64,000 bases of DNA from an uncultured archaeon (GTDB taxonomy: Archaea; Aenigmatarchaeota; Aenigmatarchaeia; GW2011-AR5), in NCBI GenBank assembly GCA_964599215.1, contig CAZRDV010000001.1, forward strand, positions 55,615 through 119,614, given 5' to 3'. Of the stretch, positions 2,392 through 51,607 are shown piece after piece; position 1 is the stretch's first letter; each line of letters opens with the position of its first letter. The notes under the pieces were generated by a model, which was not told where the DNA came from, did no database searches, and was given only the letters and a program-made list of their open reading frames with translations. The position numbers and the translations under genes are program-made.

Positions 2392-4980
2392 ATGGGTTTT
2401 AAGCTGGCTGCTGCCTTTTTTATTGTACTATTTCTGATAATGTTCATCCCGAGTGTATACGGTGATCTTCTCTGGTTTTCTTCTATAAATTATCAGTCCG
2501 TATTCTGGACAGTATTCACGACCAATGTCTATCTTTTTCTGGCAGGCACGGTAATCTTCTTCCTGTTCCTGTTTATTAACCTGAAACTGGTGAAACGGTT
2601 TTCGAAGAAGAATATATCCTCTTCTATAGTTTTGATAGTTATATTCTTTTCATTGCTACTGGGTATTGTTTTCAGCTCTGGCTGGGAAACTGCACTGAAA
2701 TTCTTCAACTCTGCGCCGTTCGGAACAACTGACCCGGTTTTTGGCAATGACCTGTCTTTCTATGCATTCGACCTGCCGTTTTACTATTATATTCTTTCAT
2801 ATTGTTTCATCCTTGTTATCTTCACAATTGCAATAACAACAATAATCTATATGGCCTATTTCAAGGTGTTTTCTGTCGAGAAGAACCAGAAAAATGTAAA
2901 AACAATGGGTCTGAAAACGAACTTCAAAAAATTCAAGTCAGCAAAAACCCATATCTCGGTGCTTCTTGCAATCCTGTTTTTCCTATTAGGAATATTTCTG
3001 TTCTTAAGCAGGTATGAGGTACTTTTTTCAACAAGAGGCGCGGTTTTTGGTGCTGGTTATACTGACCTGAATATACAACTGCCGTTCTTGCTGATATCAT
3101 CAATTGCCTCCTTTGTTGTTGGCTTTACACTACTTATATCAAGGAAGAAGCTACCGTTGATTGCTGTCTCAATATTGCTAGTTATTTTGTTTATTGGTTC
3201 TATTGCTGGTCTTGCTGTTCAGAAGCTTATTGTAGAGCCTGATGAGTTTACTGTAGAAAGGGAATACATATCAAGAAACATAGAGAATACAATAGAGGCC
3301 TATAACCTTGGTTTTGATGAGAAACAGTTCCCTGCTACCTATGACCTGACAAAAGATGATATAGATGATAACAGCGCCACCATCGACAATATAAGGCTCT
3401 GGGACTTCAGGCCATTGGTGAGAACATATAACCAGTTACAGATATTCAGGACATACTATGATTTTAATGATGTTGATGTTGACAGATATTACTTTGATTC
3501 GAATTATAAACAGGTTATGCTTTCTTCAAGGGAGCTTGACCAAGACAGTCTTGCAGATAAAGCCAAGACCTGGGTCAATGAGCACCTGGTTTATACACAT
3601 GGTTATGGATTGGCAATGAGTCCTGTTGACCGGGTAAGCGAGGGTGGGCTGCCGGAATTTTATGTCAAGGACATACCGCCTGTTGGCATGCAGATAGAAA
3701 GGCCTGAGATATATTACGGTGAAAAAACCGATGACTTTGTAGTTGTTAACACGAAGACAGAGGAGTTTGATTATCCAACAGGTGAAGAGAATGTATATAC
3801 AATATACGAGGGAGATGGCGGGATAGAGCTTAGTGCTCTGAGGAGATTGGCGTATGCAATGAAATTCGGGTCCGTAGAATTGCTGTTATCAGGATCCATA
3901 ACCGACCAGAGCAGGATAATGTTATACAGAAATATAGAAGAAAGGGTAAGCAGGATTGCTCCGTTCCTTAGTTATGACAATGACCCTTACATAGTCATAA
4001 GTGATGGAAAGATGTACTGGATTTATGATGCATACTCTACAACTGACAGGTATCCTTATTCTGAACCGATCGGGGGTTTCAATTACGTAAGAAACTCTGT
4101 TAAGATAGTGATAGACCCTTACAACGGTAAGCTTACATATTATATAATAGATGAAGAGCCCATTATCAATACATATAAAAATATATTTCCTGACCTCTTC
4201 AAAGACTTCTCTGAGATGCCGGATGATCTTAAAAAACACATAAGGTATCCTGAAGATCTCTTCAGCATCCAGGCCAGTCTTTATTCAACTTACCATATGA
4301 GGGACCCGAGGGTATTCTACAACAAAGAGGACCAGTGGATAATACCAGAAGAGATATACAGGAGCAGGAAGCAACAGATGGTGCCTTATTATGTGATAAT
4401 GAAACTGCCAGAAGAGGAAAAAGAGGAGTTCATCTTAATGATACCGTTTGTTCCTAGGGGTAAGGACAACATGATAGGATGGATGGCTGCAAGATGCGAT
4501 GATAGCTATGGAAATGTGATTGTGTACCTGTTCAGCAAACAGGAGCTTATCTACGGTCCTTTGCAGATTGAGGCACGTATCGACCAAGATACTGACATAT
4601 CACAGCTCATAACCCTATGGGACCAGGCAGGGTCTGAGGTTATAAGAGGCAATTTGTTGGTGATACCTATAGAGAATTCATTGTTGTACGTGGAGACGCT
4701 GTACCTGCAATCAAGCGAGACAGCAATACCAGAGCTGAAGAGGGTTATCGTGGCTTATGGTGATTCGTTAACAATGCAGGAAAGCCTGGAAGAGGCCCTG
4801 AACACAATATTCGGGGAGAGTGAGGCAGGACAAGAAAAAACAAAGGAAGAGCTAATCAGCCAGGCAATGGAACATTACAATAGCGCATTGGCGTACTTAA
4901 AAGATGGTGATTTCGCAAAATACGGCGAGGAAATAGAAAACCTTGGGTCATTGTTAGAAGCCCTTCAGGACACCGTCTAA
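2392..4980 (+). CDS. Large membrane protein, UPF0182/COG1615-like (about 7 N-terminal TM helices plus a large soluble domain)
   Basis: 862-aa ORF with multiple N-terminal hydrophobic helices and a long C-terminal soluble region. Family assignment is by architecture only. Confidence 0.45.
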   Translation: MGFKLAAAFFIVLFLIMFIPSVYGDLLWFSSINYQSVFWTVFTTNVYLFLAGTVIFFLFLFINLKLVKRFSKKNISSSIVLIVIFFSLLLGIVFSSGWETALKFFNSAPFGTTDPVFGNDLSFYAFDLPFYYYILSYCFILVIFTIAITTIIYMAYFKVFSVEKNQKNVKTMGLKTNFKKFKSAKTHISVLLAILFFLLGIFLFLSRYEVLFSTRGAVFGAGYTDLNIQLPFLLISSIASFVVGFTLLISRKKLPLIAVSILLVILFIGSIAGLAVQKLIVEPDEFTVEREYISRNIENTIEAYNLGFDEKQFPATYDLTKDDIDDNSATIDNIRLWDFRPLVRTYNQLQIFRTYYDFNDVDVDRYYFDSNYKQVMLSSRELDQDSLADKAKTWVNEHLVYTHGYGLAMSPVDRVSEGGLPEFYVKDIPPVGMQIERPEIYYGEKTDDFVVVNTKTEEFDYPTGEENVYTIYEGDGGIELSALRRLAYAMKFGSVELLLSGSITDQSRIMLYRNIEERVSRIAPFLSYDNDPYIVISDGKMYWIYDAYSTTDRYPYSEPIGGFNYVRNSVKIVIDPYNGKLTYYIIDEEPIINTYKNIFPDLFKDFSEMPDDLKKHIRYPEDLFSIQASLYSTYHMRDPRVFYNKEDQWIIPEEIYRSRKQQMVPYYVIMKLPEEEKEEFILMIPFVPRGKDNMIGWMAARCDDSYGNVIVYLFSKQELIYGPLQIEARIDQDTDISQLITLWDQAGSEVIRGNLLVIPIENSLLYVETLYLQSSETAIPELKRVIVAYGDSLTMQESLEEALNTIFGESEAGQEKTKEELISQAMEHYNSALAYLKDGDFAKYGEEIENLGSLLEALQDTV

Positions 4981-9133: not shown

Positions 9134-9231
9134 GCCTCGGTAGCTCAGTAGGTAGAGCAGTTGGCTGTTAAGTGCCTCAAGGCTCATCCACAGTAACCAA
9201 AAGGTCACAGGTTCGAGTCCTGTCCGAGGCG
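9134..9231 (+). tRNA. tRNA, probably tRNA-Asn(GTT), with an approx. 25-nt intron after position 37
   Basis: Acceptor stem GCCTCGG/CCGAGGC, D arm GCTC..GAGC, T arm ACAGG-TTCGAGT-CCTGT, anticodon loop CTGTTAA, discriminator G. Total 98 nt implies an intron. One mismatch at 27:43. Confidence 0.6.
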
Positions 9232-18119: not shown

Positions 18120-18235
18120 TGGGCGCGACGGGATTCGAACCCGCGACCCCTAGCTTTCTTCCTATCATCCTGGAATCAAATCTTCTATCCCTAAGATAGA
18201 AGGCTAGTGCTCTATCCAAGCTGAGCTACGCGCCC
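18120..18235 (-). tRNA. tRNA-Arg(TCT) with an approx. 41-nt intron after position 37
   Basis: On the reverse complement: acceptor GGGCGCG/CGCGCCC, D arm GCTC..GAGC, anticodon stem CTAGC/GCTAG with loop CTTCTA|intron|A, T arm GCGGG-TTCGAAT-CCCGT, discriminator A. 116 nt total. Confidence 0.65.
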
Positions 18236-32406: not shown

Positions 32407-32492
32407 TAGCCCTGGTAGGATTCGAACCTACGTCACGAGGTCCAGAGCCTCGTATCCTTGACCATTTTCCAGATAATCTAGACCACAGGGCT
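32407..32492 (-). tRNA. Candidate tRNA-Gln(CTG) with about 13 extra nt in the D-loop (possible non-canonical intron)
   Basis: Reverse complement: acceptor AGCCCTG/CAGGGCT, anticodon stem-loop CGAGG-CTCTGGA-CCTCG, T arm GTAGG-TTCGAAT-CCTAC, discriminator A. The D-arm region is 31 nt rather than about 17-18. Confidence 0.5.
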
Positions 32493-43464: not shown

Positions 43465-43913
43465 AAATATAGTTATTCTCGCCCTAATAAGAGTTTTATT
43501 TTAAAGTTTTCTGTGCAAATACTAAACTGACGTAGTATTCTGAGTGAGAAGTTAAAACTAACAGCATTATTGATGTCTACTGATCTGCTATATAATATAG
43601 GCCCCCGGTTTAACTCTCACATTTGGGTGTGAGTTCACCTATCTTCTGTAATATATATTTGATTAAGCTTATTATCAATAATATATTATACTATTAATAA
43701 TTAGTATGAAAGATATTTGATGTAATATATATTGTAGTAGATACTACCATGATTATCTCTCACAAAAGAAATATAGGCTTGAAGATATATTTGTCAAATG
43801 ATTCTTAATTACATATCAATCTCAATAGATATTTCTTAGAATATAATATATCTGAAAATTTGGTTATATCTCTCACATAAGAAAATTATTTTGTTAAAAG
43901 TAAGCAAAATAGG
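43465..43913 (-). promoter_or_regulatory. AT-rich upstream region of the pilus operon containing three TCTCTCACA-type motif copies
   Basis: Motifs at about 43611 (actctcacatttgggtgtgag), 43755 (tatctctcacaaaagaaa) and 43868 (tatctctcacataagaaa). Multiple TATA-like tracts. Confidence 0.4.
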
Positions 43914-45598: not shown

Positions 45599-45940
45599 AT
45601 GAAAATTGCTGTTGATGAGTGGGAGAACGAGGATGCAGCCGAGGCAGAACGTTCTGGCGTCTACGAATTAGACGATAAAGTCTTTGACGCTCTTTCTGAA
45701 TACTATAAAACAGGTTTTGTTGATCCTATAATTGAAAAGGGTGTCAAAAAAATTGAAGAAAAGTGGTTTCTTGAATATGATGTGAGGGATGGAAGCCAGA
45801 TAAACCATATGGTTGGTTTGTATACTATTGCTAATGGAGTTTTTCTTAAATACGATGGTACTGACATTAAAAACAGGTTCTCAACAACATACACGCCTTC
45901 TTTGTCAATAGAAGAAATAAGGGAAGATCTTAAGATTTAG
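45599..45940 (+). CDS. Hypothetical protein
   Basis: 113-aa acidic ORF. Confidence 0.4.
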   Translation: MKIAVDEWENEDAAEAERSGVYELDDKVFDALSEYYKTGFVDPIIEKGVKKIEEKWFLEYDVRDGSQINHMVGLYTIANGVFLKYDGTDIKNRFSTTYTPSLSIEEIREDLKI

Positions 45941-46314
45941 ACAGGATCGTAGCCGCCTTTGCTGAACGGATTGCAGCGCAGCAGCCTGAATGCGCCTTTG
46001 GCGATGCCGAGAAAAGAGCCATACTTGCTTATAGCTGCCTTCGTGTATTCAGAGCAGGTTGGGTAATATCTGCAGATTCTTTTCACATGCAGTTTTCTTT
46101 TCATCTGAGGATCTATCTCTGCCTGATAATATTTTATCAATGAAATGAAATCCATCTTTATCAGCATTCTTAGTATCCTTATCATTCTTTTCGGATCGTA
46201 GAAAGAAGCGATGCCAGAAGCTGCAGATGTCGTAGAACAGCAATTTACACCAACTGCCTCTTCTATCTGGGATATACAGCCGCTGATGATGTCTTCTCCT
46301 GCCATGATACTCAT
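45937..46314 (-). CDS. yidD: YidD-like (DUF37) membrane protein insertion efficiency factor homologue
   Basis: C-terminal 80 aa match the YidD pattern LIKYYQ..IDP...CRYYPTCSEY..AAISKYG..G...G..RLLRCNPFSKGGYDPV. The true start is probably the internal Met near 46188. Confidence 0.65.
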   Translation of the reverse strand: MSIMAGEDIISGCISQIEEAVGVNCCSTTSAASGIASFYDPKRMIRILRMLIKMDFISLIKYYQAEIDPQMKRKLHVKRICRYYPTCSEYTKAAISKYGSFLGIAKGAFRLLRCNPFSKGGYDPV

Positions 46315-48953: not shown

Positions 48954-49214
48954 TCAAACAATCTCCTTCTCAGAAACTATTACGAAGTCTCCTATGCTCC
49001 TTACTGAAGAAAACGGTACAAGGAGCCTGTTGTTTCCGTCTCTCTCAAGGTTCAGGTCAGAGCTGTGCTTTGTTGGCTCTACCAGAACAACGCTTATCAG
49101 CTCGCCTGTCTCAGCAGCGAAGTTTATATCGCCGACAACACCGAACTTCCTGCCAGTCTCTTCAGAAACAACAACCTTTCCAAGAACTTCCTTTCCCCTG
49201 TTTTGAATCATCAA
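48954..49214 (-). CDS. PRC-barrel domain protein
   Basis: 86 aa. GKVVVSEETGRKFGVVGDINF...LLVPFSSV is typical of small archaeal PRC-barrel proteins. Flanked by identical 19-nt direct repeats. Confidence 0.55.
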   Translation of the reverse strand: MMIQNRGKEVLGKVVVSEETGRKFGVVGDINFAAETGELISVVLVEPTKHSSDLNLERDGNNRLLVPFSSVRSIGDFVIVSEKEIV

Positions 49215-49335: not shown

Positions 49336-50577
49336 TCAGGCCTTTACAACAAGGGTCCTGATTCTCGGCGAGAGCTGATAAACAAAGGTCTTCTCTGTTT
49401 TTCTCCTTTCAACAAGCTCCTCGTTCATCATCTCCTTCAGTACGTTGTTTACTGACCTAACTGCATGCTGCCGTGTTTTGTATTTCTCTAGGTTCAGTGA
49501 ATCAGCAAGCTGCCCAGGTGTCATAGGCTTGATAAGCAGTTCTGATATCTTCCTCTTCAGCGGTGTCATTTTCTCCAGAAGCCTAAGGGATGGTGCTTTT
49601 TCCTTTTTCTCATCAAACAGCTCAGTACTTATTTTGTCCGCTCCTTCTGCTATTGCCTTGTTCATGAGCTCATTGCAGAGCCTTATGACCTCCCTCGGGA
49701 AGCCTCCTGTTCTCTCATAAATAAGGTTTATGGTAGCTTCGTCAAACGGGCCTGGAAAAGAGCCGCCGACCTTTTCAATCCTTTTTTTTATCATCTCGCC
49801 GGTTTCTTCTTTTGTTAGGGATAAAAGCTCTATTCTGGCCATTATTCTCTTTCTGAGTGTCTCCAACTCGCTCAGGTTCTCCTCAAATATAGGCAGCGCA
49901 GACAGCACTATGAATAGATTATCAACCTGGTCGCTAAGGACCCTGAGCCATTCCAGCACGCTCTTCTCTGACTCATGGGCCTCATCTAGGAGGATTATCA
50001 GTCTCTTCTGACTAAGCTTCTTATTTAAAAAGCCTGGTATTGAGTTCAGGTTTCTTATGTGAGGGATAAACAGCCTCAGAATTCTCATTAAAAAGTTTGG
50101 CTTAAAATGCTCATTAAAAATATCAATAAATTCTGCTGAATTGGCTGGCGGCTTTCCTATATAAATGATGTCATAGCTGTCTTGCAGTTTAAAAGCAAGC
50201 CATCTTAGAAGGCTTGTCTTTCCAGAGCCTGTTGGGCCAAGAACCAGGCTCAGTTTATGCCTTTCTTCTATAGCCCTTATAATTCCTGTTTTTTCCTCTT
50301 CATAACCAACAAAAATAGAGGGTTCTATGCTTAATGTAAAAGGGTTTTCTGAGCACCCGAATGCCTGAAAAAACTCCTTTGTCGTCTTTTCTGGCTTTTC
50401 TGTTGGTTTTACCCTAGCTTCAGATGGTGGTTCTTGCCTTATCTGCTTGTCAGGCTCAGAAGGGCTGTCAGCTGGCTGGGGGGTCATTTTCGAAGGGTGG
50501 GTTTTTCCTGTTGGAGTTTCATCATCAGCAGAATTTTGCGTTTTTTGATCATTTTCTTCCATGTTACTTATTATCAA
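49336..50577 (-). CDS. AAA+ ATPase with C-terminal winged helix (Orc1/Cdc6-like or archaeal ATPase PF01637-like); family unresolved
   Basis: About 100-aa low-complexity P/E/K/T N-terminus, then NPF...FVGYEEE...LVLGPTGSGKTSLLRWL (Walker A), Walker B IILLDEAHE, and a C-terminal winged-helix-like domain. Confidence 0.7.
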   Translation of the reverse strand: MIISNMEENDQKTQNSADDETPTGKTHPSKMTPQPADSPSEPDKQIRQEPPSEARVKPTEKPEKTTKEFFQAFGCSENPFTLSIEPSIFVGYEEEKTGIIRAIEERHKLSLVLGPTGSGKTSLLRWLAFKLQDSYDIIYIGKPPANSAEFIDIFNEHFKPNFLMRILRLFIPHIRNLNSIPGFLNKKLSQKRLIILLDEAHESEKSVLEWLRVLSDQVDNLFIVLSALPIFEENLSELETLRKRIMARIELLSLTKEETGEMIKKRIEKVGGSFPGPFDEATINLIYERTGGFPREVIRLCNELMNKAIAEGADKISTELFDEKKEKAPSLRLLEKMTPLKRKISELLIKPMTPGQLADSLNLEKYKTRQHAVRSVNNVLKEMMNEELVERRKTEKTFVYQLSPRIRTLVVKA

Positions 50578-51156
50578 TACTGCTGAATATAAAGATTTTG
50601 ATATTCAACTTCACGGATGTTCATCTAACTTCACGAGAAATAAGAGCAACTTCACGAACAACTTCACGAAAACCTTCATATTTCATATGAAGTTCACCAT
50701 GAATTCATATGAAGTTGTTAAAACTAATATGAAGTTCATGAAGGGTATATGAAGCTAGGATGAAGCCCCAAAAGCCTAAAGTGAGTGTTTTACTATCTAT
50801 TTTAGTTGTAGTAAGAGTCTAAATGTGAGTTTTGAGTGTTATAATAATTGGGTCTGTATATTTGTAATAATTTGTTCAAATAACTTCATGGTATGTTCAT
50901 AGAATGTTCACGGACCTTCACAGACCTTCACGGAATGTTCATGAAGGTCAATATGAACTTCATATGAAGTTCATTCATGTCTCACATTTTGTGAGCTTTT
51001 TGAGCTTATTTGTGAGGCTTGAGAGTGGTTTAACTAAGAAAAAATAAATCGAAATCAATTCTAAAAAAGACTGATAATCGATATATGTCCTTTTCAGCCT
51101 TTAAAAGATATCATCTGGTCTTTAAAGACTGGAAAATACGGCTATGAGTACTGCCA
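50578..51156. repeat. Repeat-dense intergenic region (AACTTCACG x4, TTCACGGA/TTCACAGA x3, CATATGAAGTT x3, palindrome AACTTCATATGAAGTT)
   Basis: Read directly in the sequence at 50600-50770 and 50880-50990. Also CTCACATTTTGTGAG palindrome at about 50981. Confidence 0.7.
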
Positions 51157-51459
51157 CTACCCGTAGTGGTTCATTAATTTAAGCAGCCTTAGTATCTTAT
51201 CAAGGCTATCGCCTTGCTGAAGCCTCTCAATAACAAATGGCTTTAGCTTTATTACCCTTAGAAGCGGTTTGCCTGTTCCTCCTAGGCTAACATCTTCTAC
51301 CAAGGGCTTCAGTAGCGTATCTATATACTTGGCAACAGTAGAGTGGTGGATTCCTGTTTCCTCAGCTATTCTTCTGAGCCAGATTCCATCTGGATGGTTA
51401 GCTAAGACACTAATAATAGCTGTGATTTTCTTCTTATCAAAGCCCTTTTTCCTGCCCAT
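51157..51459 (-). CDS. Small winged-helix DNA-binding protein
   Basis: 100 aa with helix-turn-helix-like GIWLRRIAEETGIHHSTVAKYIDTL. Confidence 0.5.
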   Translation of the reverse strand: MGRKKGFDKKKITAIISVLANHPDGIWLRRIAEETGIHHSTVAKYIDTLLKPLVEDVSLGGTGKPLLRVIKLKPFVIERLQQGDSLDKILRLLKLMNHYG

Positions 51460-51607
51460 ATAGCCTCACATAGAATAAATTAGCCAGCTGGCTATATAAA
51501 GTTTATCTCTGGCAAAACAAGCCAAAATACGAAGAATTTGATGGATTTATACTGAATAAAGGCCGTAATCAAGAGGTCTCACATAGCCTTATGATAAGAT
51601 ATTTGAT

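Follow-up and report, generated by a model that had tools for sequence, protein, structure and literature searches.

Bacterial replication origins carry arrays of 9-mer DnaA boxes next to dnaA, among them the low-affinity site arrays of Escherichia coli, and in type II plasmid centromeres of the parC/ParR kind, one-turn direct-repeat runs flank the operon promoter. In DPANN archaea, replication, segregation, and cell-cycle control are, to our knowledge, known from gene inventories alone, with no origin characterized. Here, we analyze a 64-kb stretch of chromosomal DNA from an Aenigmarchaeota (DPANN) archaeon, referred to as the window, and within it a 594-nt intergenic region (50563–51156; GC content 0.32) densely filled with short repeats. 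The region extends from the stop codon of a gene for a small winged helix-turn-helix (wHTH) protein to the ATG of a gene for an AAA+/lid/C-terminal winged-helix ATPase; both genes lie on the minus strand, which places the gap downstream of the former and upstream of the latter. All named close homologs of the window's genes are from Aenigmarchaeota, and the gene content is of the housekeeping kind (topoisomerase VI A/B, several aminoacyl-tRNA synthetases, ftsZ, radA, rpa, and a histone gene). We regard it as secure that the array formed by the repeats is real, has no second copy in the window, is deeply conserved and highly ordered, and is linked to the genes for the wHTH protein, an Orc-like ATPase, and a PRC-barrel protein. 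The literature searched held no description of this module, of the ATPase family, or of Aenigmarchaeota initiators.

The closest described systems are the archaeal pairs of oriC and orc1/cdc6, exemplified by Pyrococcus oriC, Sulfolobus oriC1 and oriC2, and the 13-bp mini-ORBs (ORB, origin recognition box) of Methanothermobacter. There, as here, a gene encoding an AAA+/lid/winged-helix protein has repeats directly upstream of it, repeats of opposite orientation surround an AT-rich core, many short units occur of which some have dyad symmetry, the motif is practically confined to the locus, and the architecture is conserved within the lineage (PMC1904270, PMC4010727). Arrays of 13-bp mini-ORBs beside cdc6 in Methanothermobacter and Pyrococcus are a direct precedent (PMC1904270). 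Our locus differs in that the protein fails TIGR02928 and PF09079 and has an ExeA-like ATPase core, in its unit (gAwcTTCAYR) with strict 11-nt phasing in runs of 5–8, and in that sister genomes possess a canonical orc1 with ORB origins; it is also known from sequence alone. Origin-like repeat arrays beside Orc-type genes are therefore a known kind. What is new is a protein outside the curated family, the unit and its one-turn phasing, the three-gene module, and the coexistence with classical origins in sister genomes.

The common denominator of the repeats is a short oriented unit with the core TTCA[C/T]. In total, 31 TTCA/TGAA cores fall within the gap (18 in 50601–50800 and 13 in 50801–51000), compared with a window mean of 2.7 per 200 nt (standard deviation 1.9) and a next-highest bin of 7. 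At 43.2/kb, [C/G]TTCA[C/T] is far denser in the gap than in the remainder of the window (2.41/kb), where no other 100-nt stretch contains at least four. The motif AACTTCACG has its only four copies in the 64 kb here (50607, 50627, 50648, and 50660; 0.23 expected), a count reached in 0 of 100 shuffles. The shuffles, together with the lack of a second such cluster, rule out chance and low complexity as the source of the array. An earlier reading of this DNA made without database searches (the sequence-only reading) had listed these repeats, and every element is present where it was placed, some of them more often than counted. The four tandem units are the AACTTCACG copies; TTCACRGA occurs four times (50610, 50907, 50917, and 50927) where three TTCAC(G/A)GA had been listed; and a further repeat credited with three copies, CATATGAAGTT, has four, all inside the gap (0.08 expected). 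The 16-nt perfect palindrome sits within a perfect 22-nt palindrome, ATGAACTTCAT/ATGAAGTTCAT (50953–50974), and all three perfect TTCAYRTGAA palindromes of the window fall in the gap. The proposed boundaries, 50578–51156, were right at the end and most likely off at the start: the ATPase probably begins at the ATG at 50562, a start that yields the 408-aa product called on three independent contigs, and the gap begins at 50563. The loose 12–20-nt spacing described for the units gave way to helical phasing with a mode of 11 nt.

In the orientation of the AAA+ gene, the gap proceeds from three c-boxes through a distal cluster, an AT-rich spacer, and a proximal cluster to a TATA-like box. The c-boxes occupy 50978–51030 (CTCACA at 50981–50986; GTGAG at 50991–50995 and 51012–51016). 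In the distal cluster (50977–50875), the palindromes come first, forming a block at 50938–50977 with TTCATGAA and the perfect 22-nt palindrome, which reads ATGAACTTCATATGAAGTTCAT; seven TTCA[C/T] units follow on the plus strand at 10–11-nt spacing (50875–50941; 50875, 50885, 50896, 50907, 50917, 50927, and 50938). The spacer of ~109 nt (50766–50874) contains two conserved c-boxes, GTGAG at 50781–50785 and 50825–50829, which in gene orientation read AAACACTCACTTT and AAACTCACATTT, along with the further conserved blocks tACTA and AAAAnnnnAGTA (consensus AAAACCnnAATA). The units that border the spacer are mutually inverted. On its promoter side begins a run of opposite orientation (minus strand, 50688–50765; TGAA at 50688, 50700, 50710, 50730, 50739, 50750, and 50761), drawn as the “>” run in gene orientation. 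A proximal palindromic center at 50682–50742 carries TTCATATGAA at 50682 and 50704 and ATGAAGTTCAT at 50728. The promoter-proximal run (plus strand, 50604–50681) is a “<” run in gene orientation, comprises six TTCA[C/T] units (starts at 50610, 50620, 50630, 50651, 50663, and 50675), and holds the four exact AACTTCACG copies. Its last units end 8–10 nt upstream of a putative TATA-like box, CTTTATATT (minus strand, 50588–50596), recognized by its letters and situated 25 nt upstream of the ATG, so that a leaderless mRNA is implied.

This architecture is preserved across the phylum. ATPase homologs occur at ~50% identity throughout Aenigmarchaeota, and we compared four loci fetched through them plus 36 fetched through the small wHTH protein. 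In the loci designated Group I, which include the window, the module order is wHTH gene, long gap, AAA+ gene, and an 85-aa PRC-barrel gene, followed by rpa/radA and a histone gene; every locus that extends far enough to show it (31 in all) has a gap of 358–725 nt between the wHTH gene and the AAA+ gene after it. All 27 distinct gaps are dense in units (42–70/kb vs 4–10/kb in the rest of each locus) and in c-boxes (3.5–9/kb vs ~1/kb elsewhere). Arrow maps of every distinct gap give the same succession of c-boxes, palindromes with a “<” run, a spacer with two c-boxes, a “>” run of 5–8 units, palindromes, a “<” run, and the promoter. A matrix from 664 units yields the consensus g-A-w-c-TTCA-[C 61%/T 39%]-[G/A]. 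Among same-orientation spacings, 276 of 350 are 9–12 nt with a mode of 11, and secondary peaks lie at 20–22, 30–33, and 42 nt; the units therefore fall on one face of the helix. Inverted runs flank a 57–184-nt spacer in 22 of 22 aligned loci, and alignment of these 22 spacers recovers the conserved blocks tCTCACAAA, AAACTCACAtTT, tACTA, and AAAACCnnAATA. Across this range of lengths, the spacers follow no 10.5-nt rule that would phase one array with the other, and neither a canonical CTTTATATA promoter nor an Rfam family was found in them.

We considered several other sources for such a structure. No Rfam family matches the gap at the gathering threshold or at E ≤ 1, which rules out an RNA gene of that kind (a chance snoRNA match lies inside the AAA+ coding region). 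A 63-aa open reading frame (ORF) at 50561–50752, called on one contig, is a by-product of the repeats, because it is neither called nor conserved in other loci. A mobile element or provirus was rejected: the window is housekeeping chromosome, and searches of viral contigs, phages, and plasmids bring up no member of the ATPase family, only distant Cdc6/ExeA relatives. Plasmid iterons, which are 17–22-bp direct repeats by a rep gene, were also set aside, as the units here have a 5–9-nt core, an 11-nt period, and a chromosomal context.

Taken together, the gap is very probably the cognate binding platform of the neighboring proteins, with promoter-proximal occupancy autoregulating the ATPase operon. 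We infer the following scheme, including which protein binds which motif, oligomerization, DNA melting or helicase loading, and autoregulation. The main candidate binder is the divergent Orc1/Cdc6-like AAA+/winged-helix ATPase, with the small wHTH protein as the probable reader of the CTCACA boxes. The C-terminal winged helix of the ATPase would read the TTCA[C/T][G/A] units through its recognition helix (YK-x-RQHAVRSVNN), and the 11-nt phasing would set successive protomers on one face of the helix for ATP-dependent AAA+ oligomerization. Two oppositely oriented filaments could thereby arise, nucleating at the palindromic TTCAyrTGAA sites and converging on the AT-rich spacer. The units nearest the promoter reach the TATA box and B recognition element (BRE) of the AAA+-PRC operon, and their occupancy would set the expression of the ATPase itself. 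Such a system might work as an archaeal replicator–initiator pair does, or as DnaA does on oriC. With the latter, it would share oppositely oriented sites of 11-nt period nucleated from stronger sites, an oligomerizing AAA+ protein with a C-terminal DNA-binding domain, and an array that overlaps the initiator promoter and allows autoregulation; it differs in that the protein lineages are unrelated at the family level and belong to different domains of life, and in that the AT-rich element here lies between the arrays.

The assignment of the ATPase (408 aa; minus strand, 49336–50562) is central to this scheme. We treat it, on sequence and modeling evidence, as a very divergent paralog of the Orc1/Cdc6 superfamily that lies outside the curated family. 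In the AlphaFold2 (AF2) model (pLDDT 83.5), ~55 disordered N-terminal residues (1–55) precede the AAA+ base, to which the lid and then the C-terminal winged helix are joined. Its best full-length Foldseek matches are archaeal Orc1/Cdc6 proteins (1w5t at 1e-12, 1fnn, 2qby A/B, and 2v1u) and also Drosophila Orc1. By hhalign, the family profile aligns to a TIGR02928-positive haloarchaeal Cdc6 with a probability of 97.1% over 298 columns, the winged-helix domain (WHD) included, and to a profile of 15 canonical Orc1 sequences with 94.6% over 294 columns; both alignments cross the winged helix (RQHAVRSVNNILKxL vs TQRRVSDLIxELDxLG). The recognition helix is invariant in 31 homologs, paralleling the invariant DNA unit. 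Between the strands at 131–135 and 188–192, the AF2 model predicts three helices (144–152, 157–160, and 172–183), the first of which aligns in hhalign with the helix of the initiator-specific motif (ISM; additional helices between beta2 and beta3) in Orc1-1, which makes these helices a candidate ISM. The tblastn search of plasmids returned two 334-aa haloarchaeal “Cdc6/Cdc18” proteins, both of which pass TIGR02928. These short proteins, located on haloarchaeal megaplasmids (L055 2875–3879 and L056 2875–3876), are the closest curated Orc1/Cdc6 relatives of the ATPase family and could form a bridge between the families in a phylogeny.

Standard annotation instead names the ATPase “ExeA” or “TadA”. 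It scores as PF01637/AAA_22, and its best curated match over ATPase and lid is the ExeA/GspA-like AAA_22 model TIGR03015 (compare COG3267), with an E value of 2.6e-23 for residues 68–317. The 82.8 bits of this match stay below the family cut-off of 324.5, and the gene neighbors are radA, rpa, a histone gene, and LigT, not secretion or PEP-CTERM genes. Unlike ExeA/GspA, the protein has no membrane or peptidoglycan-binding part and ends in a Cdc6-type winged helix. Sequence and profile searches of the PDB returned matches at the P-loop level only, and the profile search against the PDB gave no Orc1/Cdc6 chain.

Given this platform, what the array does can be asked more specifically. The reading we favor, tentatively and at somewhat less than an even chance, is that it may be an origin or origin-control locus in Group I Aenigmarchaeota, expanded from a 6–8-unit operator. 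We favor it because inverted arrays surround an AT-rich core, because the ATPase has an Orc-type build, because TTCA units adjoin ORBs in relatives, and because the clade with the expanded array is precisely the one whose orc1-oriC block is gone from its ancestral neighborhood. The spacer is also among the least-stable 0.6–0.8% of 60–100-nt segments (dG/bp z 2.5–2.7). Of the usual marks of an oriC, the AT-rich element between inverted repeats is present; a curated Orc1/Cdc6 neighbor and an ORB or mini-ORB consensus are not.

Several results weigh against this reading. At least a dozen other gaps in the window melt as easily or more so, the extreme being 43640–43900, and the conserved blocks of the spacer, c-boxes included, fit regulation as well as unwinding. 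The 11-nt spacing is tight for a 40-kDa protomer and better suited to the 11-kDa wHTH protein. As for the ATPase, the match to TIGR02928 (orc1/cdc6) has an E value of 0.061 and reaches 12 bits where the cut-off is 181; PF09079, PF22703, and every other Cdc6 lid/WHD Pfam model fail to match; the core fits the ExeA-like model better than any curated Orc1/Cdc6 model; and STAND NTPases, RuvB, and MuB/TnsC trail the top Foldseek matches by two to four orders of magnitude. Among family members, TIGR02928 ranges from E 0.06 to 0.002 (window and L009), and L052 has no match at E ≤ 0.01. The neighbor that the sequence-only reading called initiator-like is thus akin to Orc1/Cdc6 by Foldseek and hhalign and remains outside the family by TIGR02928 and PF09079. 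Among the observations that would speak against an origin, that reading had named a non-initiator PF01637 ATPase and a motif shared by many promoters; the first is found in part, and the second is not, the motif recurring at no other promoter in the window.

Nucleotide skew lends no support either. Bulk GC skew follows the coding strand, and GC skew at four-fold sites is positive both before and after the array (+0.114, p=9e-4, for 29–50.6 kb; +0.161, p=9e-3, for 51.1–57.5 kb). We consider the absence of a polarity switch to be weak evidence, because the statistic gives no clean signal at the canonical oriCs of L052, L053, and L009 either. Over ~57 kb and in both gene orientations, four-fold-site skew is positive on the plus strand, and it flattens after 57.5 kb, which suggests that the whole stretch 1–57000 lies in one replichore. 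A further objection comes from other Aenigmarchaeota, in which a canonical orc1 with classical ORB/G-string origins exists. As proposed from sequence, then, the replication origin retains its inverted arrays around an AT-rich core and is burdened by classical ORB origins in the phylum and the missing skew switch.

To locate canonical initiators, we built a hidden Markov model (HMM) from four PDB Orc1/Cdc6 sequences and ran it on all ORFs of ≥150 aa in 424 kb. Exactly one canonical Orc1 was detected, in L009, a complete 833-kb chromosome from a metagenome-assembled genome (CP070662.1), 7.7 kb from that genome's copy of the ATPase gene (41% identical); the same search found none in the 64-kb window. 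With the L009 Orc1 as query, many ORC1-type proteins named from Aenigmarchaeota were returned. In Group II (L052, L053, L057, and L058), the order is PRC, ATPase, a 99–145-nt gap, LigT, DnaG, CBS, Hjc ... oriC-orc1, a 340-aa gene, and PolB, with the AAA+ gene 4–8 kb from oriC-orc1. The possibility that the ATPase is the only, diverged Orc1 of its lineage is thereby ruled out for Group II, where a canonical orc1 lies 4–8 kb away (L009, L052, and L057). Coexistence with orc1 counts against an origin at the array, as does the Group II promoter gap, which has just 6–8 TTCAC units around the TATA box of the AAA+ gene (3+3 in L052 and 2+6 in L057); the ancestral role of the motif therefore looks like that of an operator. 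In Group I, HMG-CoA reductase occupies the syntenic place of the orc1-PolB block (L059 and the window compared with L057). Compared by accession blocks, none of the at least ~190 Orc1 clusters listed coincided with a Group I array in one assembly, which does not imply absence.

The orc1-adjacent gaps of these relatives show what a classical origin looks like in the phylum. ORBs with G-strings adjoin orc1 (e.g., CTCCAGTGGAAATAAAGGGG, GCAGTGGAAACGATGGGG, and TTTCTAAAGGAAATTAGGGGG), together with very AT-rich stretches. A 17-nt palindrome, ATATAACA[C/G]TGTTATAT, is kept in these gaps and in a second gap near DnaG (L009 619 and 18595; L052 4880; L053 1927 and 4707), where it may bind an origin factor or mark an unwinding site. 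The TTCA unit is found here as well. In L052, each of two G-string ORBs has ATGAAGTTCATTT directly after it; in L009, TTCAC units occur between and inside the ORBs, one unit is placed between two G-strings of inverted orientation, and the gene that follows orc1 contains three.

One could accordingly regard the array as a classical chromosomal oriC, that is, a set of mini-ORBs bound by a canonical Orc1/Cdc6 encoded elsewhere, with the AAA+ gene as a bystander or accessory. The ORB cores of L009, CTCCACGTGAAAT, do contain CACGTGAA, which resembles the palindromic unit TTCACGTGAA; also in line with this idea, Group I lacks the ancestral orc1 block at the syntenic position, and no classical ORB with G-string (RGAAAY-N1-6-GGGG) occurs in the window or any Group I locus. 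The oriC palindrome of the relatives, ATATAACACTGTTATAT, is likewise absent from the window and all Group I loci. We nevertheless judge this explanation very improbable. In Group II, the motif tracks the AAA+ promoter rather than orc1, and the array shows no skew switch. The units themselves are of another make: T stands at position −1 in just 8% of the 664 units, a G-string is lacking, and the dyad is TTCA-NN-TGAA, not TTCCA-N-TGGAA, whereas the relatives' ORBs read TTTC(C)A...GGGG and the Pyrococcus ORB/mini-ORB consensus has a TTCC..GAA dyad and often a G-string (PMC1904270). The resemblance to mini-ORB cores that had been noted from the letters does not survive this comparison.

Two further features of the Group II neighborhoods were observed. 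The LigT gene of L009 (9334–9891) contains 12 GTGAA and 2 TTCAC in two reading frames, and the LigT gene of the window contains none; going by sequence, binding sites in L009 seem to be embedded in coding DNA, as has been reported for the dp1 ORB cluster of Pyrococcus. Between the orc1-PolB block and the NAC gene, L052 (10144–10481) and L057 (16014–16166) have a second gap with ORBs, and the two ORB clusters that thus bracket the block recall the oriC/dp1 arrangement of Thermococcales.

The operator-like state in Group II raises the question of whether the array is regulatory throughout. It could be a super-operator or titration array with no origin function, which controls or buffers AAA+-PRC expression and the free concentration of its binder, the AAA+/WHD protein and/or a small wHTH repressor. 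Analogues would be the non-initiator paralog Orc1-2 of Sulfolobus, E. coli datA, and the inhibitory ORB cluster at Haloarcula oriC2. We hold this to be rather unlikely, yet it is the main rival and keeps the dense operator array suggested by the sequence-only reading alive. The Group II motif amounts to merely 3+3 or 2+6 units at the AAA+ TATA box in 99–145-nt gaps, the repeats of the window run right up to the TATA box, 28 of 34 loci have c-boxes at the wHTH promoter as well, a promoter region at 43.6 kb also carries them, the array lacks a skew switch, and the phylum has a canonical orc1/oriC. Non-initiator Orc1 paralogs are documented (PMC6061795), as is negative control by ORB clusters (PMC4010727). 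What speaks for more than regulation is the scale of the structure: ~30 phased sites, an invariant architecture, and a 57–184-nt AT-rich core in 27 loci exceed the needs of autoregulation by far, and TTCA units adjoin ORBs in relatives.

Comparison with Orc1-2, which regulates the DNA-damage response in Sulfolobus (PMC6061795, PMC9738581), is instructive on this point. Both are divergent Orc-type AAA+/winged-helix proteins (with an ISM in Orc1-2 and a candidate for one here) that coexist with true initiators and bind a short promoter motif (here as proposed), and the Aenigmarchaeota ATPase gene is always next to radA and rpa. Orc1-2 acts through single ANTTTC elements in many promoters, whereas ~30 units are gathered here at one locus and no other promoter in the 64 kb carries the motif as a target. 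The pattern of an Orc1-2-type regulon, with the motif single in many promoters, was not seen; ~7% of the genome was examined, and it holds no cluster or perfect palindrome outside the gap.

The second candidate binder is encoded directly upstream of the array in all Group I loci (minus strand, 51157–51459; 100 aa, HTH_IclR-like). This small wHTH protein is more conserved than the ATPase, with 72% mean column identity. Its promoter region in the window (51460–51607) contains c-boxes at 51465–51470 and 51578–51583, the palindrome CCAGCTGG at 51484–51491, and a TATA box at ~51492–51501. Across loci, a CTTTATATA-type box is present at this promoter in 34, followed by the conserved palindrome ACAGCTGT/CCAGCTGG and then CCAATTTATT, and c-boxes (GTGAG) stand at ~−110 and often at −10 from the ATG in 28 of the 34. 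Because c-boxes also occur at the protein's own promoter, the motifs suggest a division of labor in which the wHTH protein reads c-boxes and the ATPase reads TTCA units.

Four more c-boxes lie in a 450-nt gap at 43465–43913, the most AT-rich and least stable of the window, upstream of an operon of three small genes and a VWA gene. They include TATCTCTCACA[A/T]AAGAAA twice, 113 nt apart, and a CTCTCACA/TGTGAG pair at 43610–43633. The CTCACA box common to the array, the wHTH promoter, and the 43.6-kb gap may mark sites of a shared regulator.

Directly downstream of the AAA+ gene, without exception, lies the gene for an 85-aa PRC-barrel protein (minus strand, 48954–49211; PF05239 E 2e-6; PDB 8qzo and 8onw). 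In L007, the genes for the ATPase, the PRC-barrel protein, rpa, and radA are on one strand and possibly form one operon. PRC-barrel CdpB proteins are required for haloarchaeal division, and the fold is functionally diverse and mostly without a link to division genes (bioRxiv 10.1101/2023.03.28.534520).

This invariant partner is the starting point for a reading of the array as a centromere-like site for segregation or division coupling, bound by the wHTH and/or AAA+-WHD protein, with the ATPase as motor or switch and the PRC-barrel protein as a link to FtsZ/SepF. Site numbers vary by clade, as parS numbers do, the Group II module is origin-proximal like bacterial parS (4–8 kb from oriC), and one-turn direct repeats that flank a promoter are the layout of parC/ParR centromeres. 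As in parC/ParR and AspA/SegB, the repeats are accompanied by genes for a small DNA-binding protein and an NTPase. The locus here is chromosomal, its arrays are inverted, and its NTPase is an Orc-like AAA+ protein rather than an actin-, ParA-, or tubulin-like one; of a centromere's parts, the array and the small wHTH protein are present, and no NTPase of the ParA, ParM, or TubZ type is. Since nothing connects the ATPase fold with segregation, the PRC-barrel family is so diverse, and ftsZ is 27 kb from the array in the window, we consider this reading quite improbable. Improbable to much the same degree, if not a shade more, is the specific picture of an Orc1/Cdc6-derived ATPase that would sit on ~30 phased sites near the origin region and be tied through a CdpB-like PRC-barrel protein to the FtsZ/SepF ring. 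If such cell-cycle coupling held, a relative of initiators would have been recruited for segregation or division control in DPANN archaea.

Returning to the origin or origin-control reading, the locus offers a sharply defined, phylum-conserved cis-element whose unit, phasing rule, architecture, and two candidate binders can all be tested in vitro without cultivation. Should the array fire replication, it would be a new origin type specified by a highly divergent Orc1/Cdc6 relative, and at least one origin would be misplaced wherever a pipeline takes orc1 as the rotation point of DPANN genomes. Should it not, the ATPase would be the second documented initiator paralog with another job after Sulfolobus Orc1-2, here equipped with a PRC-barrel partner and a DNA platform of unusual elaboration. 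In both cases, a 6–8-site operator (Group II) can expand to a 30-site origin-like structure (Group I).

Elsewhere in the window, a few minor features deserve mention. Rfam reports tRNAs of 98 nt (9134–9231) and 116 nt (18120–18235) that presumably contain introns and were missed by ARAGORN, which in turn calls an 86-nt tRNA-Ile(AAT) at 32407–32492 without an Rfam report, probably a miscall. At 45937–46314, this archaeal genome encodes a homolog of the YidD-type membrane-insertion factor (PF01809, E 2e-23), found in the same neighborhood in several Aenigmarchaeota loci. A large UPF0182 family protein of 862 aa (E 4e-279) is encoded at 2392–4980.

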